Positions 6,872 through 63,915 are shown, counted from the first letter of the stretch. The stretch is DNA of 64,000 nt from a phage (GCA_014685065.1 GCA_014685065.1_4092.1); one strand, 5' to 3'. Translations and numbers: made by a program. Notes: generated from the sequence alone by a model not told the origin.

Positions 6872-6887
6872 ATATTTTCCTTATATT

Positions 6888-6920: not shown

Positions 6921-6928
6921 ATTATTAA

Positions 6929-7708: not shown

Positions 7709-7771
7709 ATAACTACCTCACTTGTTATGATGGTGTCACCCAAAAGAGTGACACCTTTATTATTATAATTA

Positions 7772-39247: not shown

Positions 39248-39312
39248 AATTTATTCCTTTAAATCAGTAAAGTACTAGTTCAGTACTGGGAATTATATAT
39301 AGAAATATTTAT

Positions 39313-46399: not shown

Positions 46400-47239
46400 A
46401 TGACAAATAGGCCAAAGCGTAAAAAGTATCTCAATAATGCTGATTTACTTCGTGAAATACAAAAAAGTAAGATTTCATACTGCTGGTTATTAGACAAATC
46501 ATATAGTATGTATGATTATATTGTTTTTCATGAGTCAGAAATTACTGCTGAGTTACTTGAAAAAGCCAAAGCAGCACGAATCAAACGACTAAACAATGAA
46601 ATGCTTGATAGTATTCGTGAAAAGGAAAGTATGAGTGCTAAAAAAGCTAAAGAATATGCAGATGAAAATAATTTAGTTATCACTGATGTTCCAATCGATG
46701 AAGTTGTTATTCGTGTTATCACTGATGAACATATTCCACCCGACACTAGAGTTAACTTTGAACCATTCAAGCATTACATTGTAGATAATGAAGGAATTCT
46801 CTATGAAGTATGTCGTTCTCATTGGAAAGGAGATCTTGAAACTGGTGAATTCAGTACTGTTCATGGTAAAATTACAAATGAACTAGGGAAGATGTTCATT
46901 AAACTTGCTGAGGAAATCTCTCATAAATCTAATTACAGAAACTATACATACTTAGATGAAATGATGGGTGATGCAAGAATACAATTAGTTAAAAACGCAC
47001 TTCTCTTTAAAGAGAGCATTCTTTATAAAAAAGATAAACCAGCAGTTCAGCTAAATCCTTTCTCTTACTATACATCATTCGTAAACAATAGTTTTCGTTC
47101 TATATTGAATAGTGAGAAAAATGTTCGAAATATACGTGATGATTTACTTGAAATGCATGGCTTTACGCCATCACATACACGTCAAATTGAGATTGAATTG
47201 AACATGATTGAAAGGAAAAATGAAGATGGCTCTGTTTGA
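46400..47239 (+). CDS. late-transcription sigma factor, gp55-like
   Basis: N-terminal KKYLNNADLLREIQ resembles T4 gp55 (recalled from memory) with further collinear segments; sits next to gp47/gp46 as in T4. Confidence 0.55.
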   Translation: MTNRPKRKKYLNNADLLREIQKSKISYCWLLDKSYSMYDYIVFHESEITAELLEKAKAARIKRLNNEMLDSIREKESMSAKKAKEYADENNLVITDVPIDEVVIRVITDEHIPPDTRVNFEPFKHYIVDNEGILYEVCRSHWKGDLETGEFSTVHGKITNELGKMFIKLAEEISHKSNYRNYTYLDEMMGDARIQLVKNALLFKESILYKKDKPAVQLNPFSYYTSFVNNSFRSILNSEKNVRNIRDDLLEMHGFTPSHTRQIEIELNMIERKNEDGSV

Positions 47240-48257
47240 TAAAGCAATTACATTCACTGATATTCACTTAGGTTTAAAGAATAACAGCAAGCAACACAAT
47301 GAAGATTGTTTAAACTTCATTAAATTCATGATTGATGTAGCTAAAAAAAATAATATCAAAGTTTGTGTTTTTATGGGAGATTATTTTCATAATAGAAGTA
47401 ATATCAATATTCAAACACTAAACTATGGTTTACAAATTCTTCAATTATTAAATGATAATTTTGAAAAAGTATATTTTTTAGTAGGCAACCATGATATGTA
47501 TCATAAAAACAAACGTGATATAACAAGTATCAATATGGCTCAAGTTTATGAAAATATAGAATTCATTAATGAAATTACAACATTTGATGATTGTACTTTC
47601 ATTCCATTTATGATTGAAGATGAATATAAGTTGTTACCTCAACTAAAAAGTAAGTATGTTTTTGGTCACTTAGAGTTACCAGGTTACTTGCTTAACAAAA
47701 TGGTAGAAATGCCTGATCATGGAAAAGAAACAGAAGGTTCTTTTGGTGGTTGTGAGTATGTTTTTAGTGGACATTTTCATAAAAGGCAGTCAAAAACAAC
47801 TTCAAAAGGAACTCGTGTAGTTTATACTGGTAATTGTTTTCCACATAATTTTTCCGATACATGGGATGATGCAAGAGGTGTGATGATTCTTGAACATGGA
47901 AAAGAACCTATTTTCAAGTCATGGGATAATGCACCAAAATATAGAACATTCACACTTTCTGAATTGTTGACTGATCCAAGCTATTATCTACAAGATAACA
48001 CAATATCAAAAGTTCAAGTTGATATATCAATAACAACTGATGAGATTAGTTTTATTCGTGATACATTTACTAAACTTTATAACATTAGGGAGTTTAATGT
48101 TGTAACTAGCAAGCAAAGTATTTCAGAATTAATCGAAGATGGTGTTAGTTTTGAAAGTACTGAATCAGTTGATGAGATAGTTTTACAGCAAATTATGGAA
48201 ATTGATTCACCAATGTTTGATAAAAATCTTCTAATCCAAATTTACAGATCGTTATAA
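47220..48257 (+). CDS. recombination nuclease subunit, SbcD/Mre11-like (T4 gp47-like)
   Basis: Calcineurin-like phosphoesterase motifs: GDYFH, GNHDM, GHLE, GHFH. ORF-track start 47208; ATG 47220 with AAAGGA RBS preferred. Confidence 0.8.
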   Translation: MKMALFDKAITFTDIHLGLKNNSKQHNEDCLNFIKFMIDVAKKNNIKVCVFMGDYFHNRSNINIQTLNYGLQILQLLNDNFEKVYFLVGNHDMYHKNKRDITSINMAQVYENIEFINEITTFDDCTFIPFMIEDEYKLLPQLKSKYVFGHLELPGYLLNKMVEMPDHGKETEGSFGGCEYVFSGHFHKRQSKTTSKGTRVVYTGNCFPHNFSDTWDDARGVMILEHGKEPIFKSWDNAPKYRTFTLSELLTDPSYYLQDNTISKVQVDISITTDEISFIRDTFTKLYNIREFNVVTSKQSISELIEDGVSFESTESVDEIVLQQIMEIDSPMFDKNLLIQIYRSL

Positions 48258-48265
48258 GGGACTAT

Positions 48266-50413
48266 ATGCTAAACATTACACGTATATCTATGAGGAACTT
48301 CTTTTCATTTGGTAATGCACCACAATCAATTGATTTGAATGGTTCCGACATTTCATTAGTACTGGGTCAAAATAATGATGCAGTTATTGAAGGTGGTGAC
48401 AGTACCGGACGTCGAAATGGTGTAGGGAAAAGTGCTATTATTCAAGGATTAGTTTTTGGATTATTTGGTAAAAGTATTGGTAATGATATTAAAATTCCGA
48501 ACCTAGTCAATAAAACTAATGGCAAAAATTGTGAAGTAGTTGTAGAGTTTGAAAAAGATGGTGTACAATATCTGGTTGAACGTGGGAGAAGTCCCACGTA
48601 TTTCAATTTTGTTACTTTAGGGAAAGATAATAAAATTGAAGATGAATCAAGGGGAGAAAAGAAAGACACACAAGAAGATTTGAATGAAATTCTTGGTATA
48701 TCTCAATTATTATTTGAACATATTGTAGTACTGAATGCTAACGTTGAACCTTTCTTAGCTTTATCCACACAAAAACAACGTGATATGATAGAAGAACTTC
48801 TTGGAATAACACAGTTGACGGAAAAAGCTGAAATGCTAAAGGAGATGTATAAGGATACTAAACGTTTAGCCGAACAAGAAAAGTTCAAAAATGAAACTGT
48901 AGCTGCAAGTAATGAACGTATTCAAAAAAGTATTGAGGCACTACAAGAACAGGCAAACCAGTTTGAAATTGATAAAAATAATAGAGTATCTAAGTTAAAT
49001 GAAGAGTTGAATATATATAAAACTTTAGACTTTAATGACCTCTATGAAGCTGCGGACATAAAAGAGAAAGCTCTTATTCATAACGCAAAGCGTGGTGAAA
49101 TCGAACGCCGTGTACAAGAGTTGGCTTTAAAATTTGATGCATATGACCGTGAACTTGAAAGATCTAAAAGAGCATTAAATCTAAGCATTGATAAGCTAAA
49201 AACTATTGATATTAGTGCAGAATTGGAAAATCATAATGAGTTGGAGATATGGAAACAGTTAGAGGGTATTCTAAAAGAGAATAATAACCAAAAACGTTTC
49301 AAAGAACAAAAACTAAACTCACTAAAAATAGCTTTAAAAGGATATGAATGTTCAATTAATGCTGAAATTGACAAATTATCAACAGTTGAAAACAGCAAAT
49401 GTCCACTTTGTATGTCTGAATTGGAACATAACGAACATACTTCTTCAATTAAAGACAAAATCCAAAGTACTATTAATGATCTTCAAGCTAAAATTGATAG
49501 TTCTTCTTCTGAAATTGAAACATTACTTCAAGAAATTGATAGTATTGAGATTTTTGATATGCCACCTAAGCCTGTGACATATTATAATACACTTTCAGAA
49601 GCACAAATGCATGAACATAAGCTTCAAGAATTGGTCAGAAAGAGTGAAGAAGAACAAATAAACATCTATGCAAATGAACTTATGTCATCATATGATGAAC
49701 TTAACTCATATGAACTAATGGAAGTTCCAGATACATTAAACAAATATGAAGTTAAAGAGTTAGAAATGACTGTAAATTCATTATCACAGCAATTAGATCG
49801 TGAATTGAAGACTACTAACACATTTATTAGCCAAATTAATACCCTGAAGACTGATTCTTTAGTACCAATTGATTATAGCGACTATAATAATCTTGATAAA
49901 ATGTCAAATCACCAAGATTTCTTGGTTAAATTACTTTTAAACAAGGATTCTTATGTCCGTAAACGTATTATTGAGCAAAATATATCATATTTGAATACAC
50001 GACTTCAGTACTATATCGATATGTGCGGTTCTGAGCATAATGTTGTGTTTTTGAATGATTTGAGTGTTGAAATTGAGAAGAGTGGACAGTACTTTGACTA
50101 TAAACAGCTTAGTAGAGGTGAGCGTACAAGGGTAAACATCGCATTATCTTGTGCTTTCCGTGATACATATGAGTCATTATACCAAAGTATTAATATTCTT
50201 ATCATTGATGAGATGATTGACCAAGGTCTTGACTCAAGTGGTGTTCTACGTGTGTGGTCTATCTTCCAAGATATGGCTGCTGTACGTGGTAAGAACGTTT
50301 ATGCTATTTCCCACAGAGAAGAGTTACTATCTAAGACTGAAAAAATCCTCAAAGTTGTTAAAGAGGACGGTTTCAGTACTGTTGAATATGCAACCCTTGA
50401 TGATGTTTTCTAA
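48266..50413 (+). CDS. recombination ATPase subunit, SbcC/Rad50-like (T4 gp46-like)
   Basis: N-terminal Walker A NGVGKSAIIQGLVFGLFGKS, long central coiled-coil, C-terminal Walker B ILIIDEMIDQGLD. Confidence 0.8.
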   Translation: MLNITRISMRNFFSFGNAPQSIDLNGSDISLVLGQNNDAVIEGGDSTGRRNGVGKSAIIQGLVFGLFGKSIGNDIKIPNLVNKTNGKNCEVVVEFEKDGVQYLVERGRSPTYFNFVTLGKDNKIEDESRGEKKDTQEDLNEILGISQLLFEHIVVLNANVEPFLALSTQKQRDMIEELLGITQLTEKAEMLKEMYKDTKRLAEQEKFKNETVAASNERIQKSIEALQEQANQFEIDKNNRVSKLNEELNIYKTLDFNDLYEAADIKEKALIHNAKRGEIERRVQELALKFDAYDRELERSKRALNLSIDKLKTIDISAELENHNELEIWKQLEGILKENNNQKRFKEQKLNSLKIALKGYECSINAEIDKLSTVENSKCPLCMSELEHNEHTSSIKDKIQSTINDLQAKIDSSSSEIETLLQEIDSIEIFDMPPKPVTYYNTLSEAQMHEHKLQELVRKSEEEQINIYANELMSSYDELNSYELMEVPDTLNKYEVKELEMTVNSLSQQLDRELKTTNTFISQINTLKTDSLVPIDYSDYNNLDKMSNHQDFLVKLLLNKDSYVRKRIIEQNISYLNTRLQYYIDMCGSEHNVVFLNDLSVEIEKSGQYFDYKQLSRGERTRVNIALSCAFRDTYESLYQSINILIIDEMIDQGLDSSGVLRVWSIFQDMAAVRGKNVYAISHREELLSKTEKILKVVKEDGFSTVEYATLDDVF

Positions 50414-50424
50414 TTAAAGTTAAA

Positions 50425-50447
50425 GGGAGCCTTAGCTCCCTTTTTTT
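50425..50447. terminator. bidirectional intrinsic terminator
   Basis: GGGAGC-CTTA-GCTCCC hairpin followed by TTTTTTT; the stop codon of the minus-strand gene lies in the loop. Confidence 0.65.
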
Positions 50448-50923
50448 ATATCTACCATATTTAATTTACCGTCCTTAATTAGCTTTCTAGCTTGTTTAGT
50501 TCTTTCCTTGACGTTACCTCCAGGAACTACTCCTAAATCGCTTAGAATGGCGTTCTGCTGCGTTGCTGGAAGCCTTTTAAACTTAGCTACGTCAACGGTT
50601 AATGCCGTGTGGTGAATGACCTGCTCATCTTCTGGTATATGATTGTTCCTTTCAAGATAATCTGCCAGATTACGCAATACTTCATGTAATGGCTTATCAG
50701 TTAAATGACTTAGGCATCGTTTATATGAGTTTGCTACTCTCCCTTCCCATCCATTCACTTCGTTTTGAAGAACCTGCCTACAATGTTGATTTCCACCATG
50801 ATAATGGTCCAGTACTGGTTTTGTTATTTCTATACCAATTATAGGGTCAATCCCATTCTGCTTCTTTAATAGTTCATTTCGATAAGATGCTGCTTCTTTA
50901 GGATTTTTTAATCTCTTTTTCAT
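50432..50923 (-). CDS. hypothetical protein, possible HNH/EndoVII-like nuclease
   Basis: 163 aa with LDHYHGGNQHCRQVLQNEVNGWEG (DHxH...N...EG) loosely resembling beta-beta-alpha-Me nucleases; no zinc-binding Cys quartet, so weak. Confidence 0.3.
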   Translation of the reverse strand: MKKRLKNPKEAASYRNELLKKQNGIDPIIGIEITKPVLDHYHGGNQHCRQVLQNEVNGWEGRVANSYKRCLSHLTDKPLHEVLRNLADYLERNNHIPEDEQVIHHTALTVDVAKFKRLPATQQNAILSDLGVVPGGNVKERTKQARKLIKDGKLNMVDIKKGS

Positions 50924-50983
50924 AGCTGTTTGTCCTGTTTTGTTAAATAAAGTATATTAAAAAGTTTTGTGAGGTACAATAGA

Positions 50984-51931
50984 ATGGCTAAAATGACACA
51001 ACAACAATTTATAGATAAATCAATTAATCTACATGGTAGTATTTACACCTACAATAACACCGTGTATGTTAATGCACATCAACCAGTGTCTATTACATGT
51101 AAAATTCATGGTGACTTTACGGTAGTTCCTAATAAACATATTTCCGCAAAGCAAGGTTGTCCGGTTTGTTCTGATATTGCAAAGAAAGAACGTAAATCTA
51201 AAAAGTCACTGGAGTCATTCTTTACTGAAGCAAAAGAAGTACACGGTGATAAGTATGATTACTCTAAAGTGTTTTTCAACATTCGTTCAGAGAAAATTAC
51301 TATCATATGCAAAGAAGAAGGTCATGGTGAATTTAATCAGGTAGTTAGTAATCACCTAGCTGGACAGGGTTGCCCTGAATGCTCCAAAGCACTTATTGGT
51401 TTAAAGAAAAGAACACCAGAAGATGTATTCTTTGAAGATTGTAAGTACATTCATATGGATGCATACGACTACTCCAATACAAAATATAATGGTATGTATG
51501 AAACAATTACACCAGTATGCAAACGTCATGGAGAATTCACAGTACTGGCAACTAAACATTATCATAGAAAGCAAGGTTGTCCGGTTTGTTCTGACATGGA
51601 ACTAAAGTCAAGACCAGTTATTGAAATTCAGAATTTTTTAAAAGAGTATGATATAATATTTGAAATGGAAAAGAAGTTTGATGGTTGTAAAAATATAAAC
51701 CATTTACCATTTGATTTTTATATTCCTTCACTGAATCTTCTAATAGAGTATGATGGTATTCAACACTTCAAACCAATAGAGTACTTTGGTGGTAAACAAG
51801 CTTTAGCTGAACAGCAAAGAAATGATGAAATAAAAAATCAATTCTGTTTTAATAACAACATTACTCTTCTTAGAATAAAGTATTTCGAAGATCATATTAA
51901 AATCATCAAAGACTATATATCAAAACTTTAA
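50984..51931 (+). CDS. free-standing nuclease: three Cys/His repeat units plus C-terminal DUF559/Vsr-like PD-(D/E)XK domain (putative homing endonuclease)
   Basis: Three ~45-aa repeats (YxYS...C..HGxF......H....QGCPxCS) then LPFDFYIPSLNLLIEYDGIQHF...LLRIKYFE. ORF-track start is GTG 50969; ATG 50984 with GAGGT RBS preferred. Confidence 0.55.
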   Translation: MAKMTQQQFIDKSINLHGSIYTYNNTVYVNAHQPVSITCKIHGDFTVVPNKHISAKQGCPVCSDIAKKERKSKKSLESFFTEAKEVHGDKYDYSKVFFNIRSEKITIICKEEGHGEFNQVVSNHLAGQGCPECSKALIGLKKRTPEDVFFEDCKYIHMDAYDYSNTKYNGMYETITPVCKRHGEFTVLATKHYHRKQGCPVCSDMELKSRPVIEIQNFLKEYDIIFEMEKKFDGCKNINHLPFDFYIPSLNLLIEYDGIQHFKPIEYFGGKQALAEQQRNDEIKNQFCFNNNITLLRIKYFEDHIKIIKDYISKL

Positions 51932-51954
51932 AATATGATATAGTTTTTTTAGAA

Positions 51955-51986
51955 CCAAGTAATAAAAATGTTACTTGGGTTTTTTA
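51955..51986 (+). terminator. intrinsic terminator
   Basis: 8-bp stem CCAAGTAA/TTACTTGG with 8-nt loop followed by GTTTTTT. Confidence 0.6.
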
Positions 51987-52038
51987 TATGTGTAAAAGTT
52001 GGAACTAAGTACTTAATGAATATTTTTATAAAAATAGT

Positions 52039-52066
52039 GAGACAACTTTAAAGTTTGTGCTATAAT
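52039..52066 (+). promoter_or_regulatory. sigma70-type early promoter (GAGACA, 16 nt, TGcTATAAT) with no protein gene downstream
   Basis: Same architecture as the promoters at 801, 23342 and 46315. Confidence 0.5.
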
Positions 52067-52072
52067 GTTTGT

Positions 52073-52526
52073 TGTAGTAATGACAATCCTGTTGAATGCA
52101 GAAATGCATATAAATTAGAACCTGATCCTATCGAAAATGTAGATGGCAGATGAGCAGTTCAACAGTGCGATGAGCAAAAGAAACCCGTTAGATGTGGGCA
52201 TAGTTTGAACCCCTCACGGCAATGCGGCTCAATAAAGAACTCCGATAAGCATACAGAGAGTTCCTCGATAGACATATAAGGATCGCACCTTACCAGATTT
52301 GCTAAGGGAGTTTATTAAGTGATTTTAATAAACAGCCTGAAGTTTGATTGTATAGACTTTCAGGTGAGTGTCAGGATGATTAAGACTGACGACCGTTGCA
52401 CATGACTGCGATAGAGAGAAACAGAGCAACCCGCTTTCGTTCTTAATATATTTTTAAGAAATTCGCAATACAATAAATGCTGAAACCATCAGCGTCAAGA
52501 AATAGAGACTTCATTGTCTCTTTTTT
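52073..52526 (+). ncRNA. candidate structured noncoding RNA (~450 nt), identity unknown
   Basis: Bounded by the promoter above and an intrinsic terminator (stem 52504-52521 plus T-run); no ORF of 60 aa or more; GC-rich hairpins. Confidence 0.3.
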
Positions 52527-52740
52527 ATTGTCTTCATTCCCCTGCGGGGGGATGAAAATGTCCTCAACAAATCCCGTCAAGTATTAAATCTTTTAAAGTT
52601 CTTTATAATTAATTTAATTAAATGAATATGAGTTACGTAGTAACGAATATTCTTCAGCTAACGAATGAAATGAGTTAGATGAATCCAATAATATTAAAAT
52701 TAATCCTTTCATAATTCAATTCAAATAATTCTGTAGTTTA

Positions 52741-52771
52741 AAACCAAAAAAAACCAGCAACAATGTGCTGG
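52741..52771 (-). terminator. intrinsic terminator (minus strand)
   Basis: CCAGCA-6 nt-TGCTGG hairpin; minus strand reads hairpin then TTTTTTTTGG. Confidence 0.6.
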
Positions 52772-52782
52772 CTATATGAAAA

Positions 52783-52992
52783 TTAGTGCTTCTCGTTTTG
52801 TTTTTTAATTTTTTTATTAAAAGACTTAACTAATAAGTCTCTATCTATTAATGGCATATTAAGGAGTGTTCCATAGTCAATGTTATCCATATATACAGAA
52901 CATTCCATTAGTGCATTTTTGATTTCTGACTTATTCAGTTCTATCTCCTTCAGTACTTCTTGTATTTCTTCAGGAGATGACTGGAGAAGCAT
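52783..52992 (-). CDS. hypothetical small protein
   Basis: 69-aa ORF, start overlaps the stop of the upstream gene by 1 nt. Confidence 0.4.
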   Translation of the reverse strand: MLLQSSPEEIQEVLKEIELNKSEIKNALMECSVYMDNIDYGTLLNMPLIDRDLLVKSFNKKIKKQNEKH

Positions 52993-53828
52993 TACTCGAA
53001 AAAATGACTAGGATCATATTTTAGTCCATCAATTTCCCATTGATGATTACATCCATCACATTCTACTTCCATACTATGTGATACTCCAATTTCAAGTACT
53101 TCATCCATTTTTTCACGAATTAGTTTAAGTACTCCCTTCGATTGTTGTCCAAGCCATTCATTAATAAATTCTTTTTCAACTACTTCATCACCATCTGGTG
53201 TTATAATTTTTGCAATAACTCCACCGATCATGTCGAAGTTAAGTTGAGCCATGTTTTCAAATACTTCAGAAAATATTTTTACTTTTTCATCTTTATCAAT
53301 ATCAGCAGTTTCAAGAAACTTAGTCTTCTGTTGCTCACTGAACATGCGTTCAGCAAACGATGAATATTCTTTCCATGTCAGTGGTCTAAATTCTAAACGG
53401 AGTCCATTATCTAAATCAATTGATGGGATTTCTTCAAATGCTTGTGCAGTTTCAAGAAGATATGATAGATTACGCTCAAATCGACCTTCTTTTTCACATT
53501 CAGGACATACAACGTTAATATCATATGTTTCTTCTTTAGAAGCAACTTTAATAGCAATAAGAAGCATTTCAACGTCATTTACATACAACTCATCAGCGTC
53601 AATTACATTAGGAACACAGTTTTCAATAACACGGGATACTGCATCTCCGTTTAGTAACATATCGGGGGTATTAAGTGTCATTTCATCACGTGCACTACGT
53701 GCACAAACTCCACATTTGACACCTTTTGGACCTAGGACTCCTTCTTTATAAGGAATAACGCCGTTTGTAACTAACTTAGTACTGATCTCTTCAATTTTAG
53801 TGTACTTAGCAAGTGGATTCATAGCCAT
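52992..53828 (-). CDS. hypothetical Cys-rich protein (possible zinc-binding virion/assembly protein)
   Basis: 278 aa with CGVC, CPEC and CDGC pairs; preceded by GGAG RBS and a TATAAATA late-type motif. Confidence 0.45.
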   Translation of the reverse strand: MAMNPLAKYTKIEEISTKLVTNGVIPYKEGVLGPKGVKCGVCARSARDEMTLNTPDMLLNGDAVSRVIENCVPNVIDADELYVNDVEMLLIAIKVASKEETYDINVVCPECEKEGRFERNLSYLLETAQAFEEIPSIDLDNGLRLEFRPLTWKEYSSFAERMFSEQQKTKFLETADIDKDEKVKIFSEVFENMAQLNFDMIGGVIAKIITPDGDEVVEKEFINEWLGQQSKGVLKLIREKMDEVLEIGVSHSMEVECDGCNHQWEIDGLKYDPSHFFE

Positions 53829-53862
53829 TTTATTAAATCTCCATGTAATAAATGTGTTTTAG

Positions 53863-53870
53863 TATTTATA
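53863..53870 (-). promoter_or_regulatory. T4-like late promoter motif TATAAATA (minus strand)
   Basis: Exact TATAAATA on the minus strand about 35 nt upstream of the 53828 start codon. Confidence 0.45.
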
Positions 53871-53958
53871 AGACCAAAAAAGATTAAATTAAACTAATTT
53901 TTATATTCTCTATAGTTTCATAAATATTTCTATAATACATCTATTAAAAGGGAATGTT

Positions 53959-56163
53959 ATGGCTGGAAATACAAGTGATTACCTACTCCAGCAGTTGGTT
54001 AATCAAACTAAAGATAACAACGATAGTTTGAGTGCTATACGTGAGTTATTGGCTGAAAATATAAAAAATGATAGAAAGAAATCCGGTTCTAAAAGTGGAA
54101 AACGTAATGGAAGTAATTCATCAAGTACTGGAAACCGTGGCTCTCGAACAAATAACAAAGCTGATGATGGTAAAGAATTTGGAAAAATATTTAAATCATT
54201 ATCATCTGAAGTATCGAATGTCGGCAAAACTATGATGAGTACGTCTGCAAACGTTAGCAATGTTGTAAACTCACTAGGAATGAGTGCATCTTCATTTGCT
54301 GGTTCATTAGCAATGATCCCAGGTCCAGTTGGTGCAGCAGCATCTGCCTTCAAATTGGTTGCTGACGCTGGTTTAGCAGTTTATAATGTGTTAAATGCAC
54401 AGCTTGAAGTTTATAATAGAATAAACAGTGCTGGTGTCGCTCTATCTGAAGGTTACGGCTCCATATTAAAAGGTGCTGGTGCATCAATGATGAGTATTGA
54501 TGCATTTGGTGAAGCATTACAAACTCATAGTGCCGTTGTTGCACAATTAGATGGTGCATATGGTGATGGTGTTTCTACATTTGGTAAATTATTGGGTACT
54601 GTGCAACAAGCACAAAATCAATTAGGTTTATATGGTGTTTCTCAAAAAACATTAACTGATTTAACTGCACGTAATATTAAATTCCAAAAGCAATTTGGTG
54701 GAAGAGAAATGTTACGTAGTATGGATCAAGCAAAAAGTACTGAACAGTTTATCATGAGCATGACTAAGTTCAGTAAAAGCATGGGTGAGTCAGTTGATGC
54801 ACTATTAAATAAAACACAAAACTTAGATAAATCATTAGACACACGTTCAATGCAAATCGCATTACAAAACTATTCTGGATTATCTAGTAAAGCAGCAGTT
54901 GCAACATCAAAAGCATTTAACGAAGCGGCTGCCAGTATGGGTGATGCTGGTGCAGATTTTCTACGTTTAATTTCACATCGTTTAACTATTGGTGGAGTAC
55001 CAGATGATTTATTGACTCCAGTACTGAACCAATTTGCTGATTTAGGTGAGAACTTGGTACGTAGTGGTGTTACTGATTCACAAGAAATTCGCCGTCAACA
55101 ATTGGAATTTGTTAAAAAGAACAAAGAACTAATAAAGCAAGATTTATTAAATCAGATACAATTAGGAAACACTACGGCAGCAACCTTCAACCAACAACTA
55201 CTTGATATGGAAGCTGCGATTAATGATCCTAAGAGTCAACCAGCAGATAAACTAACACAATTCACTGATAGATTCAATAGATGGATTAGTAAAGAATTTA
55301 CTGAACCATTTAATAAAATGTATGCAGATACACAAAATTCTATTGCGGATTACCTTACTGATATTGCAGACCGTACTGATGGTGCATGGGAATTTATCGG
55401 AGAGTTAGCACTTGATGGTTTTGGTTTGGTTCCTATTGCGAAAGATGCAGTTGCGTATTTGGATAGGATTGGTGGTGAGTTTGAGCAGTGGTTAGAAGGG
55501 TTAGGTACTGAAATTTTTGGTAGTGGATATAATAAAGTTTCAGAAGCATTTGATAGCTTTATGAATAACCTAATGGATCTTCCTGGTAAACTTTGGGATT
55601 CTGTTAAAGGTTGGTTTGGTGGTTCAGACGACAAAGTAAAAGTAGAAAACAATTCTGTTACCGATGGTGCAGAAAAAGTTAATAATTATTTTGAAGAAAA
55701 AATGAATTCATTTGGTGATTATATTTCTAGTTCATTTGATGGTTTTTTAAAATGGAATTCAAGTAGAAACTTTAAACAACCAAAACCCCTTGATGAATCA
55801 GTTGCTGAAAAACTTATTAGTAGTGGTCTTGAAAATAAGCCAAGAGCTACTGCGAGAATTGAAAAATCTGAACATGTTGCACCATATGTAACGATAACTC
55901 CAAAAACATTTGACAAATCAGCATGGGGACCAAATGATCTACCAATTCAAGCTGAACCGGACGATTATGAGTCCATGAAAGCGATGATAAATAGTGGTAG
56001 TAGTATGGCAAATGCTAATAATAATGCCACAATATCAGAAGACATGAAAGAGTTACTTAAAAAACTTGCTGATGTTAATGAGCAATCTCTATCTGCTGTG
56101 CAACAGACAAATAACTATCTAAGAACTATCTCTGAAAACACTCAAGGTGAGAGAAACAGTTAA
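53959..56163 (+). CDS. hypothetical virion protein
   Basis: 734 aa; basic S/G/N-rich low-complexity N-terminus, hydrophobic Gly/Ala-rich segment; immediately upstream of the portal gene. Confidence 0.45.
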   Translation: MAGNTSDYLLQQLVNQTKDNNDSLSAIRELLAENIKNDRKKSGSKSGKRNGSNSSSTGNRGSRTNNKADDGKEFGKIFKSLSSEVSNVGKTMMSTSANVSNVVNSLGMSASSFAGSLAMIPGPVGAAASAFKLVADAGLAVYNVLNAQLEVYNRINSAGVALSEGYGSILKGAGASMMSIDAFGEALQTHSAVVAQLDGAYGDGVSTFGKLLGTVQQAQNQLGLYGVSQKTLTDLTARNIKFQKQFGGREMLRSMDQAKSTEQFIMSMTKFSKSMGESVDALLNKTQNLDKSLDTRSMQIALQNYSGLSSKAAVATSKAFNEAAASMGDAGADFLRLISHRLTIGGVPDDLLTPVLNQFADLGENLVRSGVTDSQEIRRQQLEFVKKNKELIKQDLLNQIQLGNTTAATFNQQLLDMEAAINDPKSQPADKLTQFTDRFNRWISKEFTEPFNKMYADTQNSIADYLTDIADRTDGAWEFIGELALDGFGLVPIAKDAVAYLDRIGGEFEQWLEGLGTEIFGSGYNKVSEAFDSFMNNLMDLPGKLWDSVKGWFGGSDDKVKVENNSVTDGAEKVNNYFEEKMNSFGDYISSSFDGFLKWNSSRNFKQPKPLDESVAEKLISSGLENKPRATARIEKSEHVAPYVTITPKTFDKSAWGPNDLPIQAEPDDYESMKAMINSGSSMANANNNATISEDMKELLKKLADVNEQSLSAVQQTNNYLRTISENTQGERNS

Positions 56164-56174
56164 GGACGAAAATA

Positions 56175-57914
56175 ATGAGTTGGAAACGACATATGACAGT
56201 GGGAAGGTCTAAACTATCGACCATCCCAAATCAGTCCAGTAATAGCAATAAATCAACAGGAACGAAAACAAATTTCGCTTCCTATCTTCCTGTTGTATAT
56301 AATGGATTGGCAAATCGTACTGAGCGTTATAGTCAGTATGAGCAAATGGACCAAGATCCTGAAATTAGAACTGCATTGAATATAATTGCTGACTTTTGTA
56401 CTCAAAGTACTGAAGATTTTGGTTTACCATATAAAATCAAATATAAAGATGATATTGGTGATACTGAAGTAACGACTATTGAAGATCGTTTAGATGCATG
56501 GACTGAACAAAATGATTTTAAAACACGAATGTATGAAATTGTGCGTGGTCTTCTGAAATATGGTGATCAATTTTTCATTCGAGATCCAGAAACATTCGAT
56601 TGGTATTGGGTAAGTCCCAAAAATGTTGAGCAAGTATTTGTTAACGAAGCCACTGGTAAAACACCAGTAATTTATTATATACGTGACGTATCATTAAATT
56701 TGAAAGATAAAGTTTTTAGTAACCTTCAAGTAGGATTTGATAAAACCGCTTATCCAGGAGCTATTCCAACAACAATGGGTGGTGGTGGTTCAGTAGCTGC
56801 TGGTGGTGCATCTGGTTTTACAAGTCAAGGAAATACGGCTGACCCATTCAGTACTAATGGACAATTAGACGTTATTCCTGTTGGTGCAGAACACGTAATT
56901 CATCTAACACTAAATACAGGACAAGATGGGGTATGGCCTTTTGGTACTAGTATACTTGAGGACGTATTTAAAGTCTATAAGCAAAAAGAACTTCTGGAAG
57001 ATAGTATCATAATTTATCGTGTACAACGTGCACCTGAGCGTCGTGTATTTAAAATTGATGTTGGTGATATGCAAGCACACCAAGCGATGGCTTATGTTGA
57101 AAGATTTAAAAATGAAATCCACCAGCGTAGAATACCTTCAAACAAAGGTGGAAGTACTTCACTAATGGATGCAGCGTATAATCCATTAAGCATTTTAGAA
57201 GACTACTTTTTCCCACAAACTTCTGAAGGTCGTGGTTCAGATGTTCAAACATTACCAGGCGGTGATAACTTAGGACAAATTGATGACTTACGTTATTTCA
57301 ATAATAAATTGATTCGTGGTCTTCAAATACCAGCTTCATATCTACCACAAGGTCCAGATGATGGTGGTGTTTCATTATTTGGTGATGGTGCTACACAAGC
57401 TATGGCAAGTGAATTGCGATTCAATAATCAATGTATGCGTTATCAACGTTTAGTTGCAAAACATTTTGATGCTGAATTCAAAAGATTTATGGTTAAAAAT
57501 GGATATAACATTAGTACTTCATCTTTTGAAGTTATTATGAATCCACCTATTAACTTAGCTTCTTATCGTAAAGCTGAACTAGATGCTAAACTAATTAATA
57601 CATATCTTCCTCTTAATGACTTGCCTTATATGGCGAAACAAACAATTCTTGAAAAAATGGGCTTTTCTAAAGCTGATATTGTTAAGAATGAACAAATGTG
57701 GTTACAAGAGAATCCACAAGATGGTTCCCAACCTTCTGGTGGTGAAGAAGATTCCGCAGGATTGCAGTCTGTTGGTATTGATGCTCCAAATGATCCTGGA
57801 ATGGATCTTGGTATTGATGGAGAAGGTAATTTGGAAAGTGCTGATGCCGAATACCAAGAGCAACAGAGTGGAAGTGGTGGTTTCGACCCTAATAATTTAG
57901 GCAATTCTTTTTAA
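56175..57914 (+). CDS. portal protein (T4 gp20-like)
   Basis: LEDSIIIYRVQRAPERRVFKIDVGDM...TLPGGDNLGQIDDLRYF collinear with the T4 gp20 core (recalled from memory). Confidence 0.8.
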   Translation: MSWKRHMTVGRSKLSTIPNQSSNSNKSTGTKTNFASYLPVVYNGLANRTERYSQYEQMDQDPEIRTALNIIADFCTQSTEDFGLPYKIKYKDDIGDTEVTTIEDRLDAWTEQNDFKTRMYEIVRGLLKYGDQFFIRDPETFDWYWVSPKNVEQVFVNEATGKTPVIYYIRDVSLNLKDKVFSNLQVGFDKTAYPGAIPTTMGGGGSVAAGGASGFTSQGNTADPFSTNGQLDVIPVGAEHVIHLTLNTGQDGVWPFGTSILEDVFKVYKQKELLEDSIIIYRVQRAPERRVFKIDVGDMQAHQAMAYVERFKNEIHQRRIPSNKGGSTSLMDAAYNPLSILEDYFFPQTSEGRGSDVQTLPGGDNLGQIDDLRYFNNKLIRGLQIPASYLPQGPDDGGVSLFGDGATQAMASELRFNNQCMRYQRLVAKHFDAEFKRFMVKNGYNISTSSFEVIMNPPINLASYRKAELDAKLINTYLPLNDLPYMAKQTILEKMGFSKADIVKNEQMWLQENPQDGSQPSGGEEDSAGLQSVGIDAPNDPGMDLGIDGEGNLESADAEYQEQQSGSGGFDPNNLGNSF

Positions 57915-57927
57915 ACATAAATAACAG

Positions 57928-57952
57928 TGTATAAGAATGAGGGTTTATTTTT
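57928..57952 (+). terminator. putative intrinsic terminator
   Basis: TGAGGGT-8 nt-ACCCTCA hairpin followed by TTTATAAT (short T-run). Confidence 0.4.
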
Positions 57953-57987
57953 ACCCTCATTTATAATGCATATTTCAAGGAGATCAA

Positions 57988-58215
57988 ATGTTAAAGGACA
58001 TCTTTGAATCTAGCAGTGATTCAATGTACGACCCTGAAGATGATCAGAACGTATATAAAATTACTGATTCCAGAAAACCGAAACTAACATTACAAGTATT
58101 AAACAACTTAAGAAAGTACCGTGAATTTAAAGCACATGAAGAACAACGCCGCAAAAATGTGGTTGCAGTTGTTTATGCCGCTGCACCAACAGGTGACGGT
58201 TCTGGGTTAATGTAA
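57988..58215 (+). CDS. hypothetical small protein (possibly prohead core component by position)
   Basis: 75-aa ORF with AGGAG RBS, between the portal and head-core genes. Confidence 0.4.
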   Translation: MLKDIFESSSDSMYDPEDDQNVYKITDSRKPKLTLQVLNNLRKYREFKAHEEQRRKNVVAVVYAAAPTGDGSGLM

Positions 58216-58267
58216 ATCGAAAATCGCACTTTTTAAAGCTTTTAAAAAAGGCGATTTTATTCAGTAC

Positions 58268-58283
58268 TAAATAATATCATACT
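58268..58283 (+). promoter_or_regulatory. late-type promoter/leader element, variant of TATAAATA
   Basis: 16-mer TAAATAATATCATACT identical to 61032-61047; also shared downstream ACGAAT and GGAGxATATAATG start context. Confidence 0.4.
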
Positions 58284-58316
58284 TTATACGAATGTAATAT
58301 ATCTATGGAGGATATA

Positions 58317-59165
58317 ATGGCGAATTTAAAACTACTACAAGAAGCAATTGCGGCGTTTGCAAATGGCGAACAAGATATTGCTGATAAAAAAATGCGTAAG
58401 TATTTCGTTGAGCAAGCTCAAGAAATTAACAAACAACTAGAAGAAAGCATGGAAGATGAAGACGACGATGAAGATTGTGAAGTCGAAGTTAAAGTCAAAG
58501 ATGAAGAAAAGCTTGACGAAGATTTTGATGTACAACCAGACGAAGGTCTAAATGCTGAAATCGAATACACCCTTGGTGAAGAAGATGAAAGTGCAGAAGA
58601 AGAAGTTGAATTCTCTGCTGATGCAGATGGTGACGGTGAAGACGATGTTGACGTTGAAGTGAAAGCTGATGCTGATGTTCCTTCCGAAGACCAATGGGAA
58701 TCAATCCAAGATGCTTTCCGTGGCCTACAACAAATGTTTGATGAAATCGGTGACGGTGAAGTTGATCTAGATTCTGAAGAAGAAGTAGAAGATAGCGAAG
58801 AAGAAGTTGGTGTTGACGGTGACGACGAATTTGCTGATGTTGAATTCGGCGATGAAAAATTCGGTGAATCCTTCAAACTAGAAAAAGTTGCTCCAGTTGA
58901 TAAGAAAGAAAAAGCTGGCACTCATTCCAAATCTCCAGTAGCACCAGAAGCTAAATCTCCAGTAGCAGGAGCAGAGCCAGTTAAATTCGCTAAGAAAACT
59001 GACCAAGCACCACTACTAGACCTAGATGATAAATCTGTTCTACCAAAAGATAGCCTAGATCTTGGTAAAAATGCTCGCGGTGAAATGAAAGATGTTAAAG
59101 CACCAAAAACTACTGCATCTAATTCTAAATCACCACTAAGCAAAGCACAACCTAAACTAAAATAA
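58317..59165 (+). CDS. highly acidic protein, probable prohead core/scaffolding-type protein
   Basis: Long D/E-rich tracts (EDEDDDEDCEVEVKVKDEE, DGDGEDDVDVEVKADADV); position between portal and prohead protease. ORF-track start 58305; ATG 58317 with GGAGG RBS preferred. Confidence 0.45.
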   Translation: MANLKLLQEAIAAFANGEQDIADKKMRKYFVEQAQEINKQLEESMEDEDDDEDCEVEVKVKDEEKLDEDFDVQPDEGLNAEIEYTLGEEDESAEEEVEFSADADGDGEDDVDVEVKADADVPSEDQWESIQDAFRGLQQMFDEIGDGEVDLDSEEEVEDSEEEVGVDGDDEFADVEFGDEKFGESFKLEKVAPVDKKEKAGTHSKSPVAPEAKSPVAGAEPVKFAKKTDQAPLLDLDDKSVLPKDSLDLGKNARGEMKDVKAPKTTASNSKSPLSKAQPKLK

Positions 59166-59185
59166 ATATCTGAAAGGAGATCATT

Positions 59186-59809
59186 ATGAGTAGTATGATT
59201 CGTGAATGGTCTTCATTCAATGATTCTAAAGTTGTTTTGGAACATCGTGATAATGGATTTGGTGGGCGTGACTGCTATCTTCGTGGTATTGCTATTCAAG
59301 CCGACCAACGAAATTTGAACGAGAGAATTTACCCTTTATCTGAAATTACAAGGGCAGTAAATAACATGAACCAGCGTTTAGCTAAAGGTGAAAGCATTCT
59401 TGTTGAATGTGACCATCCAGAAACACTAACTATTAACCTAGACCGTGTAGCAGCAATGATTACTAAGGTTTGGATGGAAGGTGCTAATGGTATGGCAGAA
59501 ATCAAACTACTTGATACTGCACATGGTCAGAATATCCGTAAAATGCTAGAGGCTGGTGTAAAACTTGGTGTAAGTTCTCGCGGTTCCGGTAACGTTGATT
59601 ATAATGGAATAGTTTCTGATTTTGAAATTATCACTATTGATATTGTTGCTCAACCTAGTGCTCCAGAAGCATACCCAACAGCGGTATTTGAATCTCTGAT
59701 GAGTAAGTACGGATCACCTTGTAATAGTTCTAAAAAAATCACTGAATCTAAAAAAGTAAATAATTTAGATTCTGAAATATACGATTTTTTCAAGAAATTA
59801 AAAGGTTAA
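59186..59809 (+). CDS. prohead core protease (T4 gp21-like)
   Basis: Collinear with gp21-family pattern N.RIYP...CDHPE...AMITKVWMEG...GVKLGVSSRGSG...DFE...D.V.QPS.PEAY (T4 gp21 recalled from memory). Confidence 0.6.
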   Translation: MSSMIREWSSFNDSKVVLEHRDNGFGGRDCYLRGIAIQADQRNLNERIYPLSEITRAVNNMNQRLAKGESILVECDHPETLTINLDRVAAMITKVWMEGANGMAEIKLLDTAHGQNIRKMLEAGVKLGVSSRGSGNVDYNGIVSDFEIITIDIVAQPSAPEAYPTAVFESLMSKYGSPCNSSKKITESKKVNNLDSEIYDFFKKLKG

Positions 59810-59820
59810 CATTTTAAAAA

Positions 59821-59828
59821 TATAAATA
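59821..59828 (+). promoter_or_regulatory. T4-like late promoter motif TATAAATA
   Basis: Exact TATAAATA 48 nt upstream of the scaffold start; overlaps an 8-bp hairpin (59826-59849). Confidence 0.45.
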
Positions 59829-59875
59829 TCTGTATGTTGAAGTACAGATATTTCAGTACTTAAAGGAGAGAACGA

Positions 59876-60991
59876 ATGTCTAAATTAGAAAAGCTTCTAA
59901 AAGAATCATCTCTTTCTGATGAGGCAAAACAGCTAATTCAGGAAGCATGGAATGAAGAAAAGAATACACTAGCCGCAGAGATGCGTGAAGAAATGAAAGG
60001 CCGTTATCAGCAAGATTTGGCTGAACTAACCGAAGGTTTGAACACTATGGTTACTCAAGTCATTGCTGAAGAAATGGGTGCTGTATATGAAGAGAAAAAA
60101 CGTCTCGTTGAAGATCGTGTAACTCTACGTAAAACACTAAGCAATTTCTCTGCGTTTTCAAACTCTGTTTTGGCTGAAGAAGTTAAACAAATGCGTAAAG
60201 AACGTAAGCATCTTCATGAATGCATGGGTAAATTCGTTAATTTTTCTAACGGTATCCTAGCAGAAGAGCTAAAAGAATTCCACACTGAAAAACGCCAACT
60301 AGTAGAAACTCGCGTTAAACTACTTGCTGAAGGTTCACGTCAAATTGCTGAAGCTCGTAATAACTTCATCAAACGTACATCTGAAAGTGCTGCTAAATAT
60401 ATTGCAGAAACCACTCAGAAGAATCTATATGCGTTGAAACAAGATCTAGTGGAAGCAAAACAAAATATGTTTGGTCGTAAAATCTTTGAAGCATTTGCTC
60501 AAGAGTTTAATGTCAAACAATTTAATGAAAACTCATTGCTACGTTCCCTAACTGAATCAATTAAATCTAAAGAAGATGAAATTGCTCAAGTTAAGCAAGA
60601 ACTACATGAAACTGCTAATGCCGTTAAAGCTGCTAAAACCAAACTACGTATTATGGAAGATGCACAAGCACGTAATGCGATTATGTCTGAACTAGTAAAA
60701 CCACTAACTGCACAGCAAAAACAAATTATGGAATCCCTTCTAGCTACTTCACCTACTGAAAAGCTTAAAGAAGATTTCAGCAAGTACCATAAGTCAGTAC
60801 TTAACGGTACTAAAGTAAATGAATCTGCTACCACTCGTCAAGCAGTTCAGTCTTCCGCTAAGAAAACTCTTGCAGAAGGTAAAGTAATCACTGGCAACCG
60901 TCAGGCTATTGTTGAAAGCGAAGAAATGACCGCTGACGATATGGCATTCCTAAAAGAACTAGATGTTCTTTCAGGTATCAATAAAAAATAA
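59876..60991 (+). CDS. prohead scaffolding protein (gp22-like)
   Basis: 371 aa, A/E/K/Q-rich with heptad-like periodicity (predicted coiled coil); position between protease and capsid genes. Confidence 0.55.
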   Translation: MSKLEKLLKESSLSDEAKQLIQEAWNEEKNTLAAEMREEMKGRYQQDLAELTEGLNTMVTQVIAEEMGAVYEEKKRLVEDRVTLRKTLSNFSAFSNSVLAEEVKQMRKERKHLHECMGKFVNFSNGILAEELKEFHTEKRQLVETRVKLLAEGSRQIAEARNNFIKRTSESAAKYIAETTQKNLYALKQDLVEAKQNMFGRKIFEAFAQEFNVKQFNENSLLRSLTESIKSKEDEIAQVKQELHETANAVKAAKTKLRIMEDAQARNAIMSELVKPLTAQQKQIMESLLATSPTEKLKEDFSKYHKSVLNGTKVNESATTRQAVQSSAKKTLAEGKVITGNRQAIVESEEMTADDMAFLKELDVLSGINKK

Positions 60992-61029
60992 ACATTTTAA
61001 AGCATTTTAATAATCAAATTTTTCAGTTC

Positions 61030-61037
61030 TATAAATA
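61030..61037 (+). promoter_or_regulatory. T4-like late promoter motif TATAAATA
   Basis: Exact TATAAATA 46 nt upstream of the capsid start; extended block TAAATAATATCATACT shared with 58268-58283. Confidence 0.5.
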
Positions 61038-61082
61038 ATATCATACTGAAAAACGAATATAACATCTTTAAGGAGATATATA

Positions 61083-62258
61083 ATGTCACAACTACTAAAT
61101 GAATCCAAATGGGTAGCAGTAAAAGAGAAACTAGTTGAAGGTCTACAGGGTACTCGTAAGTCTGTAATGGAAACTGTTCTTGATAACCATCGTAAAGTTA
61201 TGCTAACTGAATCCGCAACTTCTGGTGCAACTACCGCTGGTAACATCGCTACTCTAAACAAAGTGATTCTACCAATTATGCGTCGTGTAATGCCAACCGT
61301 TATTGCTAACGAAATCATCGGTGTTCAACCTATGACTGGTCCAGTTGGTCAGATCCACACCCTACGTGTACAATATGCTGATAACGCACCTGGTGTAATC
61401 GCTGGTGAAGAAATGCTTTCTCCATACAAAATCGCTAAATCTTACTCTGGTGATCTAAATGCGGATAATAGCAACCCACAAGCTGCTCCTACTAGCCAAC
61501 TAGAAGGTACTATGGGTCGTCGCGTTAACATCCGTATTCTACGTGAAACTGTTGAAGCGAAATCTCGTCGTCTATCTGCACGTTGGACTGTTGAATCTGC
61601 ACAAGATGCTCAATCCCAACATGGTGTTGACGTTGAAGCAGAACTAATGGCTGCAATCGCTCAAGAAGTTACTGTAGAAATCGACCAAGAGCTACTAAGC
61701 CGTCTACGTGCACTACCTGGTGCTGCTGCTGTAACTTATGACCAATCTAAAGTTACTGGTGTTGCAACCTTCGTTGGTGATGAGCACGCTGCTCTAGCTA
61801 CTCTAATTAACCGTCAAGCAAACGAAGTTGCTCGTCGTACTAAGCGTGGTGCTGCAAACTGGGCTGTTGTTTCCCCAACTGCACTAACCATTCTACAATC
61901 TGCTACTACTTCTAGCTTTGCACGTACCACTGAAGGTACTTTTGAAGCACCAACTAACGTTAAGTTTGTAGGTACTCTAAACAGCACTATGCGTATTTTC
62001 GTTGATACCTATGCTAGTGATGCAGAAGATATTCTAATTGGTTATAAAGGAAATGCGGAAACTGATGCTGGTGTATTCTATTGCCCATACATCCCACTAA
62101 TGGCTTCCGGTACTGTAATGGACCCTAACACTGGGGAACTCGTTACAACTTTCTTAACCAGATACGGGTATGTTCAGTTGACCGATAGCACCAGTTCACT
62201 AGGTAACGCTGCGGACTACTACAGCAAAATCGCTATCAAAAACGTTACTTTCATGTAA
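61083..62258 (+). CDS. major capsid protein (gp23-like position)
   Basis: 391 aa directly after the scaffold gene; strongly biased codon usage suggests high expression; strong terminator follows. Confidence 0.6.
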   Translation: MSQLLNESKWVAVKEKLVEGLQGTRKSVMETVLDNHRKVMLTESATSGATTAGNIATLNKVILPIMRRVMPTVIANEIIGVQPMTGPVGQIHTLRVQYADNAPGVIAGEEMLSPYKIAKSYSGDLNADNSNPQAAPTSQLEGTMGRRVNIRILRETVEAKSRRLSARWTVESAQDAQSQHGVDVEAELMAAIAQEVTVEIDQELLSRLRALPGAAAVTYDQSKVTGVATFVGDEHAALATLINRQANEVARRTKRGAANWAVVSPTALTILQSATTSSFARTTEGTFEAPTNVKFVGTLNSTMRIFVDTYASDAEDILIGYKGNAETDAGVFYCPYIPLMASGTVMDPNTGELVTTFLTRYGYVQLTDSTSSLGNAADYYSKIAIKNVTFM

Positions 62259-62302
62259 TTGTAATAGATTTAAAAGATTTAATCAAAAAAAATAAAAACA
62301 AA

Positions 62303-62333
62303 AGGGACTCTTCGGAGTCCCTTTTCTTTTTAT
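62303..62333 (+). terminator. intrinsic terminator
   Basis: AGGGACTC-TTCG-GAGTCCCT hairpin followed by TTTCTTTTTATT. Confidence 0.75.
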
Positions 62334-62404
62334 TAAAAAACCCTTTACACAATGTTCTGGAATGTATATAATACGCACATACACGAAAATAAAGAGACAA
62401 AATT

Positions 62405-63502: not shown

Positions 63503-63525
63503 ACAATCTAAAGGAGTTGACACGG

Positions 63526-63876
63526 ATGTTAACTGTATACAAATTTAATAGAGAAGAGTACTTAAAGAGTCAGTACTCAAACATAGAAATAAATGTTCCT
63601 TATGGGACATTAGTTGGTTATGATGAATCCACCGAAACTTTATATTATAATGATGATAGATTGGATTATAGTTTAGATTCTTTTATAGAAGATATACTAA
63701 ACACACATACTGAAGATATGTTATATGAAGAATACATAGATCATTATAGGGAACGTATGTCACAATTACACTCGGACGCTCCAGTACTAAACATTACACA
63801 AGAACCTTCTGAATTTCAGCCCCATAATCCTTTTCAACGTTTAATAGATATTGGTTTGAAATTCACTATTAGTTGA
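63526..63876 (+). CDS. hypothetical protein
   Basis: ORF-track start is TTG 63517; ATG 63526 with AAGGAG RBS preferred; 116 aa. Confidence 0.45.
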   Translation: MLTVYKFNREEYLKSQYSNIEINVPYGTLVGYDESTETLYYNDDRLDYSLDSFIEDILNTHTEDMLYEEYIDHYRERMSQLHSDAPVLNITQEPSEFQPHNPFQRLIDIGLKFTIS

Positions 63877-63915
63877 TAGATAAATATCTCCATATTAATG
63901 ATGGAGATTGAATCT

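Follow-up and report, generated by a model that had tools for sequence, protein, structure and literature searches.

Two genes in a phage related to Escherichia phage 121Q, probably homing endonuclease genes, share a zinc-finger-like repeat array and differ in their nuclease-like domains

We analyzed 64,000 nucleotides of phage DNA (this whole stretch is the window, below). Two of its genes, which we call ORF-A and ORF-B, are probably free-standing (intergenic) homing endonuclease genes (HEGs) that belong to two known modular classes. Both proteins have an N-terminal array of CapR-like repeats, which is followed by a Vsr/EDxHD-like nuclease domain in ORF-A and by a T5orf172/GIY-YIG-like nuclease domain in ORF-B. 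A preliminary description of this DNA had already proposed that these are modular homing endonucleases, and the proposal is supported by their domain composition, folds and conserved residues, by the cassettes they lie in, by their presence or absence in related phages, and by the divergence of the flanking DNA. The parts of the two genes are as follows.

50984-51931, + strand: coding sequence of ORF-A (315 amino acids; three CapR-like zinc-finger repeats and a Vsr/EDxHD-like nuclease domain)
50996-51181, + strand: ORF-A repeat 1 (amino acids 5-66; putative ligands C39, H42, C59, C62), from HMM domain coordinates and invariant columns
51206-51391, + strand: ORF-A repeat 2 (amino acids 75-136; putative ligands C109, H114, C130, C133), from the same evidence
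51419-51601, + strand: ORF-A repeat 3 (amino acids 146-206; putative ligands C179, H182, C199, C202), from the same evidence
51605-51928, + strand: C-terminal Vsr/EDxHD-like nuclease domain of ORF-A (amino acids 208-315; conserved D244, E255, H261, D281, K284)
62405-63502, + strand: coding sequence of ORF-B (365 amino acids; four CapR-like repeats and a T5orf172/GIY-YIG-like nuclease domain), whose DNA is 100% identical to gene 604 of phage 121Q
62423-63187, + strand: repeat array of ORF-B (amino acids 7-66, 69-133, 136-198 and 201-261), from HMM coordinates and invariant Cys columns
63200-63499, + strand: T5orf172/GIY-YIG-like domain of ORF-B (G268-Y-F-Y271, Y283-K-Y-G286, R293/R294, E347)

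The window is evidently from a close relative of Escherichia phage 121Q, a jumbo myovirus of 348 kb (Asteriusvirus; NC_025447). By blastn, the two are 99.7% identical over 52006-64000 and 97.0% identical over 46415-50924, where almost all of the differences are within one gene. The window is distinct from 121Q because two gene-sized indels separate them. The genes around ORF-A and ORF-B are for sbcCD-like recombination proteins, endonuclease VII, and baseplate, portal, protease, scaffold and major capsid proteins. Both ORFs are intergenic and lie where the preliminary description had placed them. We rejected an origin as intron-encoded genes (group I or group II), given this position and the lack of any Rfam match, to an intron or to another family: Rfam gave no intron model with E ≤ 1 in 50400-53000, nor at the gathering score across the whole window.

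According to the preliminary description, the product of ORF-A carries three repeats and the product of ORF-B carries four units of the same type, attached to unrelated C-termini. An alignment of all seven units bears out the first point. As to the second, the two arrays match each other by BLASTP (E = 1e-20, 33-36% identity), and the C-termini give no BLASTP match. The size of the unit needs correction: it had been put at about 45 amino acids, but units are 62-66 amino acids long with a period of 65-70 amino acids, and each includes an N-terminal helix (F..HG.KYDYS) that had been left partly outside. The consensus of the three copies in ORF-A and the four in ORF-B is TTExFIxxAxxxHGDKYDYSxVxYxxxxxKVxIxCxxHGxFxQxPxxHLxGxGCPxC. 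F5, C35, C55 and C58 are invariant in the seven-unit alignment, and position 38 is mostly H (or C). Among 53 units from homologues, the three cysteines are again invariant, while conservation is 90% or more at H38, H48, Y19, Y24 and F41. Most units have the ligand pattern C-x2-4-H...C-x2-C; repeat 1 of ORF-B is a degenerate CxxC...CxCxxC variant. For ORF-A, the ligand sets of all three repeats are invariant in 40 homologues.

The preliminary description did not recognize the repeat as a named domain, but it is one. It matches three Pfam families: DUF723 (PF05265), DUF4379 (PF14311, "probable treble clef zinc finger") and the CapR homology domain (PF21817). ORF-A passes the gathering scores of DUF723 (30.1 bits; cut-off 20.9) and DUF4379 (27.3 bits; cut-off 24.5). 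ORF-B passes for DUF4379 (27.4 bits; cut-off 24.5) and is just under for DUF723 (20.3 bits vs. 20.9). The CapR model scores below its cut-off for ORF-B (17.5 vs. 24.2 bits) and gives no match for ORF-A. DUF4379 matches 40 of the 40 aligned proteins in the ORF-A set and 32 of the 42 in the ORF-B set. More broadly, a search at E ≤ 1e-5 places at least 7,461 protein clusters in the repeat family, and tblastn finds it in 1,037 phage records.

The repeats are evident in the proteins only. A recent tandem duplication of the DNA was rejected, as TRF found no tandem repeat array and the best identity between units at the DNA level is 75% over 81 nt; as DNA, the repeats are old. We looked for the module in all other ORFs of the window, and none carries it. 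(We took a match at 38507-38689, with E = 0.02, to be due to chance because it lies within a region that aligns with the baseplate wedge gene of 121Q, and on the opposite strand.)

The preliminary description suggested predicting the structure of a repeat. In the AlphaFold model of ORF-A (pLDDT 91.4; the pTM is low, which is normal for a beads-on-a-string protein), the repeats have a treble-clef layout, and the positions of the ligands agree with the DSSP elements. Two helices, one of them with 12 residues, and a beta-hairpin make up each of repeats 1 and 2; repeat 3 is not as regular. The hairpin of repeat 1 has C39 at the end of its first strand and H42 in its turn, and C59-x2-C62 begins the helix H60-71. 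The predicted site arrangement is that of a treble clef, with a knuckle in the beta-hairpin and CxxC at the N-terminus of a helix. The model of ORF-B shows a like arrangement (pLDDT 86.1). Sequence searches of the PDB with the repeat profile and with both full proteins found no solved structure. We infer that the units are treble-clef-type zinc fingers, which would bind zinc and recognize an extended site on DNA.

For the C-terminus of ORF-A, the preliminary description pointed to a PD-(D/E)XK-type segment similar to DUF559 and Vsr. A Vsr-type fold and catalytic set are present (Vsr itself is the top structural match), and the score for DUF559 is below the cut-off. All of 28 homologues share D244 (in FDFY), E255 (in IEYDG), H261 and D281, which correspond to the EDxHD catalytic set: a metal-binding Asp, a general-base His, a second Asp, and an extra acidic residue. 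The spacing of 17 from D to H is that of D196/H213 in I-Bth0305I. In an hhalign comparison of the nuclease profile to E. coli Vsr, which is weak (E = 0.11), D244 falls on D51 of Vsr and E255 falls on the position of F62; if this weak alignment is right, E255 is the extra acidic residue that was noted for the EDxHD family. The N-terminal Glu that is equivalent to E25 of Vsr is uncertain in the subclade of ORF-A and appears to be shifted by two residues. Pfam scores are below the cut-off for both DUF559 (12.3 bits vs. 20.6) and DUF2726 (18.8 bits vs. 24.7). When the nuclease profile was compared to the PDB, 3hrl was matched at E = 0.11, which is not significant, and 3r3p was not found. Because the sequence matches to DUF559 and Vsr are below threshold, we place ORF-A among the EDxHD/Vsr-like proteins by its fold and motif, as a distant outgroup.

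ORF-A is a new allele, as its best database match is 88% identical; that match is also full length. For the two nucleases, there are strong matches to PHROGs 559, 681 and 9084, which are annotated as endonuclease or homing endonuclease. Neither ORF-A nor ORF-B passes a threshold in NCBIfam, and PADLOC has no match for either. Proteins with these repeats and a Vsr-like domain commonly carry the annotation "HNH endonuclease" or "hypothetical protein" (in PHROG 559, for gp584 of 121Q, and in several GenBank records). We rejected an HNH identity: there is no HNH motif and no match to an HNH family in Pfam, and the fold is Vsr-like. The label thus appears to be a misnomer.

The C-terminus of ORF-B had been described as GIY-YIG-like. 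It has the GIY-YIG fold and the motif residues (two Tyr motifs, Arg and Glu), and the motifs GYFY, YKYG, RR and TETF are conserved. On its own, ORF-B is below the gathering scores of T5orf172 (18.5 bits; cut-off 20) and MUG113 (14.8 bits; cut-off 22.3). Among the 42 aligned proteins of its set, 13 match MUG113 (the best at 2.7e-11) and 7 match T5orf172 (the best at 1e-10). ORF-B also matches PHROG 681 (E = 1e-78), and it is already in GenBank as an "endonuclease." The window ends within another gene (63916-64000), two genes downstream of ORF-B, which is the start of a homologue of gp606 of 121Q. That protein is a stand-alone "GIY-YIG nuclease family / T5orf172 domain" protein of 102 amino acids, without a DNA-binding array.

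Each ORF lies in a cassette that some related phages lack. Presence or absence at the same loci in related phages was a check that the preliminary description had proposed, and its outcome is positive for both genes. The features at the ORF-A locus are as follows.

50432-50923, - strand: endonuclease VII gene (PHROG 423), a divergent allele that is linked to ORF-A (compared to 121Q, about 76% identity of DNA and 83.5% identity of protein)
50925-52005, + strand: ORF-A cassette, defined by blastn against 121Q (1081 bp, in place of 58 bp in 121Q), with a promoter-like site, a Shine-Dalgarno sequence, the coding sequence and a terminator-like hairpin
51955-51988, + strand: terminator-like hairpin (51955-51978) and T-run that end the ORF-A cassette

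The ATG start codon of ORF-A (at 50984) has GAGG 9 nt upstream. Most close relatives lack ORF-A, and the cassette is missing from 121Q, ph0011 and TH47. The cassette is present in phages EC22.5-2 and ECO103 4-12-1, where it is about 85% identical and its flanks are 100% identical. The adjacent endonuclease VII allele is only about 76% identical to that of the HEG-less phages, while the surroundings of the gene are 99-100% identical to 121Q. The nearest endonuclease VII alleles are those of the two HEG-bearing phages, EC22.5-2 and ECO103 4-12-1 (82.7%). Relative to 121Q, codons of the endonuclease VII gene differ synonymously in 60 cases and non-synonymously in 27, which makes it a functional divergent allele. 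The exchanged module of endonuclease VII and ORF-A extends from a bidirectional terminator at 50422-50443 to about 52005; the left edge of the divergent module is this terminator-like hairpin, which lies between the sbcC-like gene and the endonuclease VII gene. Because the whole gene is at 76%, with no graded tract, the divergence of endonuclease VII could also be a swap of the module by ordinary recombination that was not stimulated by a nuclease.

On the other side of the endonuclease VII gene, TH47 has a different gene of the T5orf172 type. Its product has 340 amino acids with degenerate zinc-finger units, and the gene lies between those for the sbcC-like protein and endonuclease VII, on the minus strand (L004 484-1497, which is equivalent to the junction at about 50413-50432 of the window). 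Its presence makes the neighborhood of endonuclease VII a hot spot of HEG insertion. Beyond the right end of the ORF-A cassette, about 780 bp (52006-52782) contain no ORF above 45 amino acids and no Rfam match. The equivalent DNA of 121Q is 100% identical and carries no annotation. Several promoter-like and terminator-like sites are present; in some relatives, the equivalent region is annotated with small hypothetical genes or as a repeat_region.

The features at the ORF-B locus are as follows.

62124-62213, + strand: cluster in which 15 out of 30 codons differ, all synonymously, at the 3' end of the major capsid gene; a candidate for the recognition/immunity region of ORF-B or for a co-conversion tract
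62332-63525, + strand: ORF-B cassette, an insertion when compared to the empty site of Salmonella phage SD-6_S16 (the alignment breaks at 62331 and 63526)
62344-62372, + strand: sigma-70-like promoter of ORF-B (TTTACA-17-TATAAT, 11/12), just past the terminator of the capsid gene (62300-62325)

Besides the empty site in SD-6_S16, this locus has at least two other states. Phages of the slurp01 type have an allele with three repeats and a swapped N-terminal array; what this allele shares with ORF-B is limited to the last repeat and the T5orf172 domain. SHEFM2K has an unrelated T5orf172 gene. The allelic breakpoints of ORF-B are within repeats 3 and 4 (nucleotides 559, 670, 696 and 727 of the coding sequence); the array is replaced and the nuclease is kept. 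The capsid protein is 100% conserved, and its gene differs at 26-33 synonymous codons and no non-synonymous codons. The last 92 codons, beside the cassette, contain 21-26 of these synonymous differences (P about 1e-9 to 3e-11), with 15 in codons 348-377 (62124-62213). Across about 47 genomes, the haplotype of the 3' end of the capsid gene tracks the ORF-B allele. The flank variants are not strictly specific to an HEG, because the haplotype of the empty-site phage is that of SHEFM2K, which has a different HEG.

A third member of the family is present in 121Q and absent from the window, which leaves one more empty site.

39262-39292, no strand assigned: empty site where 121Q has gp584 (flank identity drops to 86-97% within about 300 bp)

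In 121Q, gp584 has 254 amino acids, with two repeats and a Vsr-like domain; it lies between genes for gp6-like wedge and gp25-like baseplate proteins and is annotated as "HNH endonuclease." We also noticed two metagenomic homologues (P0224 and P0226) that combine a DUF723/DUF4379 repeat region with a GNAT acetyltransferase domain. The N-terminal repeat region is about 440 amino acids, the GNAT domain matches PF13508 (29.7 bits; cut-off 27), and there is no recognizable nuclease. P0224 lies between genes for terminase and a T4-type portal protein, which is an HEG-like position, and near it is a second gene with matches to DUF723 and a faint match to Acetyltransf_7 (the regions noted on L009, an 88.6-kb phage contig from ENA, are 6001-7851 and 1-1092).

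Overall, presence or absence of the cassettes and flank divergence among near-identical phages fit what would be expected of recently mobile HEGs with co-converted flanks. We infer that both enzymes cleave DNA, and also where. Each gene would be expressed early, from its cassette's own promoter, and the zinc-finger array (units of about 63 amino acids of the CapR/DUF723/DUF4379 type, as beads on a string) would bind an extended site in the HEG-less allele. The tethered C-terminal nuclease, which would be a Vsr/EDxHD-type variant of PD-(D/E)XK in ORF-A and T5orf172/GIY-YIG in ORF-B, would then cut. During co-infection with a related phage, the cut would fall in the allele without the gene, near the insertion point; the likely location is the 3' end of the major capsid gene for ORF-B and in or beside the endonuclease VII gene for ORF-A. 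Recombinational repair from the HEG-bearing genome would copy the cassette and its flanks (co-conversion), and silent or divergent changes would protect the donor's flank from its own enzyme. The cluster of silent changes in the capsid gene and the divergent allele of endonuclease VII are the footprints that homing would be expected to leave, whether from co-conversion, self-immunity or both.

Three points make other explanations seem less likely: the ORFs and their catalytic residues are intact, phages can do without the genes, and the flank signatures appear in comparisons of genomes whose remaining sequence is 99-100% identical. For example, the two genes might be domesticated derivatives that kept the architecture of HEGs and no longer propagate themselves, and which now exclude or degrade co-infecting relatives or satellites, or bind DNA to regulate nearby late genes. 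These very modules have documented domestications (CapR, the capsid repressor of PLE, and Odn of ICP1), ORF-B is directly after the capsid gene with its own sigma-70-like promoter, and its alleles are kept in many Asteriusvirus genomes. We nevertheless consider domestication unlikely. Unlike CapR, the two proteins still have complete nuclease domains, whose catalytic residues are conserved; the genes are dispensable, since viable relatives have empty sites; the flanks look as homing would leave them; and there was no match in PADLOC.

Alternatively, the genes might have arrived by homing and be decaying relics, with nucleases that are now inactive or non-specific, so that the polymorphism reflects deletion and ordinary recombination. 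Theory of the HEG life cycle predicts degeneration after fixation, repeat 1 of ORF-B is degenerate, and both nuclease domains are sub-threshold in Pfam. Against this, both ORFs are intact with conserved catalytic and ligand residues, the structure models are confident, neither ORF-A nor its 88%-identical relative is truncated, and the sharp flank signatures between genomes of 99-100% identity imply recent events, all of which makes decay quite unlikely. It is highly improbable that ORF-A is instead an immobile enzyme, either a Vsr-type mismatch-repair nickase or a general DNA-processing enzyme that is recruited by zinc fingers, even though Vsr is its top structural match and it adjoins recombination genes (sbcCD-like and endonuclease VII). 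Such an enzyme would not be expected to be missing from most close relatives; the extra acidic residue at the position of Vsr F62 is typical of EDxHD homing enzymes; homologues have been annotated and published as intron-associated or free-standing HEGs; and by eye, the C-terminal domain seems to lack a cluster of Cys/His ligands that would match the zinc site of Vsr.

Returning to the genes as HEGs, a more speculative idea concerns how the array reads DNA. If each unit of about 63 amino acids contacts its own stretch of the target, then swapping units or changing their number would retarget the nuclease. At one locus, ORF-B alleles with four and three repeats differ in just these ways. We think that such modularity is improbable. 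If true, the units would be a natural, compact and reprogrammable zinc-finger scaffold, which would work with at least two nuclease chemistries and, in the metagenomic relatives, a GNAT acetyltransferase.

If the enzymes are active, these phages are a natural experiment in which the same zinc-finger array is joined to two nuclease chemistries in near-identical jumbo-phage genomes. The filled and empty sites, the alleles that differ in repeat number, and the synonymous cluster in the capsid gene, which predicts a target, make the recognition rules of CapR/DUF723/DUF4379 directly testable. This gives a testable target prediction for a very large domain family that has no PDB structure detectable by sequence and almost no biochemistry. 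Our interpretation would also explain local mosaicism in Asteriusvirus genomes, and it corrects the annotations "HNH endonuclease" and "hypothetical protein."

The free-standing HEGs of T4-type phages (SegG, SegF, MobE and Hef), together with I-TevI, are intergenic cassettes with their own expression signals and combine a nuclease with a DNA-binding module. They cut a neighboring conserved gene and co-convert flanking markers. Their DNA-binding modules lie C-terminal to the nuclease and are built from NUMOD or HTH motifs plus one zinc finger. ORF-A and ORF-B, which would otherwise resemble them, differ in that a zinc-finger array of several units is N-terminal to the nuclease.

Within the group of domains to which the repeats belong, the only member with experimental data on DNA binding is CapR of PLE, a repressor of the capsid operon that is encoded by a satellite of Vibrio cholerae phage; four cysteines are needed for DNA binding (EMSA with Cys-to-Ser mutants; PMC8096241). 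Its zinc-finger DNA-binding domain is homologous to the repeats described here. In contrast to ORF-A and ORF-B, it is a single domain that acts as a repressor and has no nuclease. Also, CapR has the pattern CxxC...CxC, whereas most of our units have C-x2-4-H...C-x2-C, and the Pfam model for CapR is below threshold.

[quoted passage not shown] In the HEGs of that study, on phage group II introns, an EDxHD/Vsr-like domain of about 100 amino acids comes after three to five CapR-like domains, each of about 60 amino acids, and the authors note thousands of unannotated relatives. ORF-A likewise has three units of that size, related to CapR, DUF4379 and DUF723, and then a Vsr-like domain of about 100 amino acids. 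It differs in being free-standing and intergenic, with no match to an intron model. The prototype of the EDxHD family, I-Bth0305I (PDB 3R3P; PMC3239194), is intron-encoded and binds DNA with two NUMOD2/HTH motifs; ORF-A has zinc-finger repeats instead and no significant sequence match to it.

For ORF-B, the closest known systems are gp165 and gp174 of phage ICP1 and other HEGs, which have a related zinc-finger array at the N-terminus and T5orf172 at the C-terminus (Barth, Dunham and Seed 2023; PMC10448857). In that study, 87% of 229 phage HEGs with T5orf172 had zinc fingers of the CapR, DUF723 or DUF4379 type, often several of them, and the authors describe recombination of the repeats and "domain shuffling." As in those HEGs, the array of ORF-B consists of repeats that have been reshuffled from allele to allele, and ORF-B lies at a boundary of genetic exchange; the host lineage is different, as ORF-B is from an Asteriusvirus jumbo coliphage. 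Because the repeat is named and both fusions have been published (PMC10448857 and PMC12350094), ORF-A and ORF-B are not a new class of system but a clear example of known ones.
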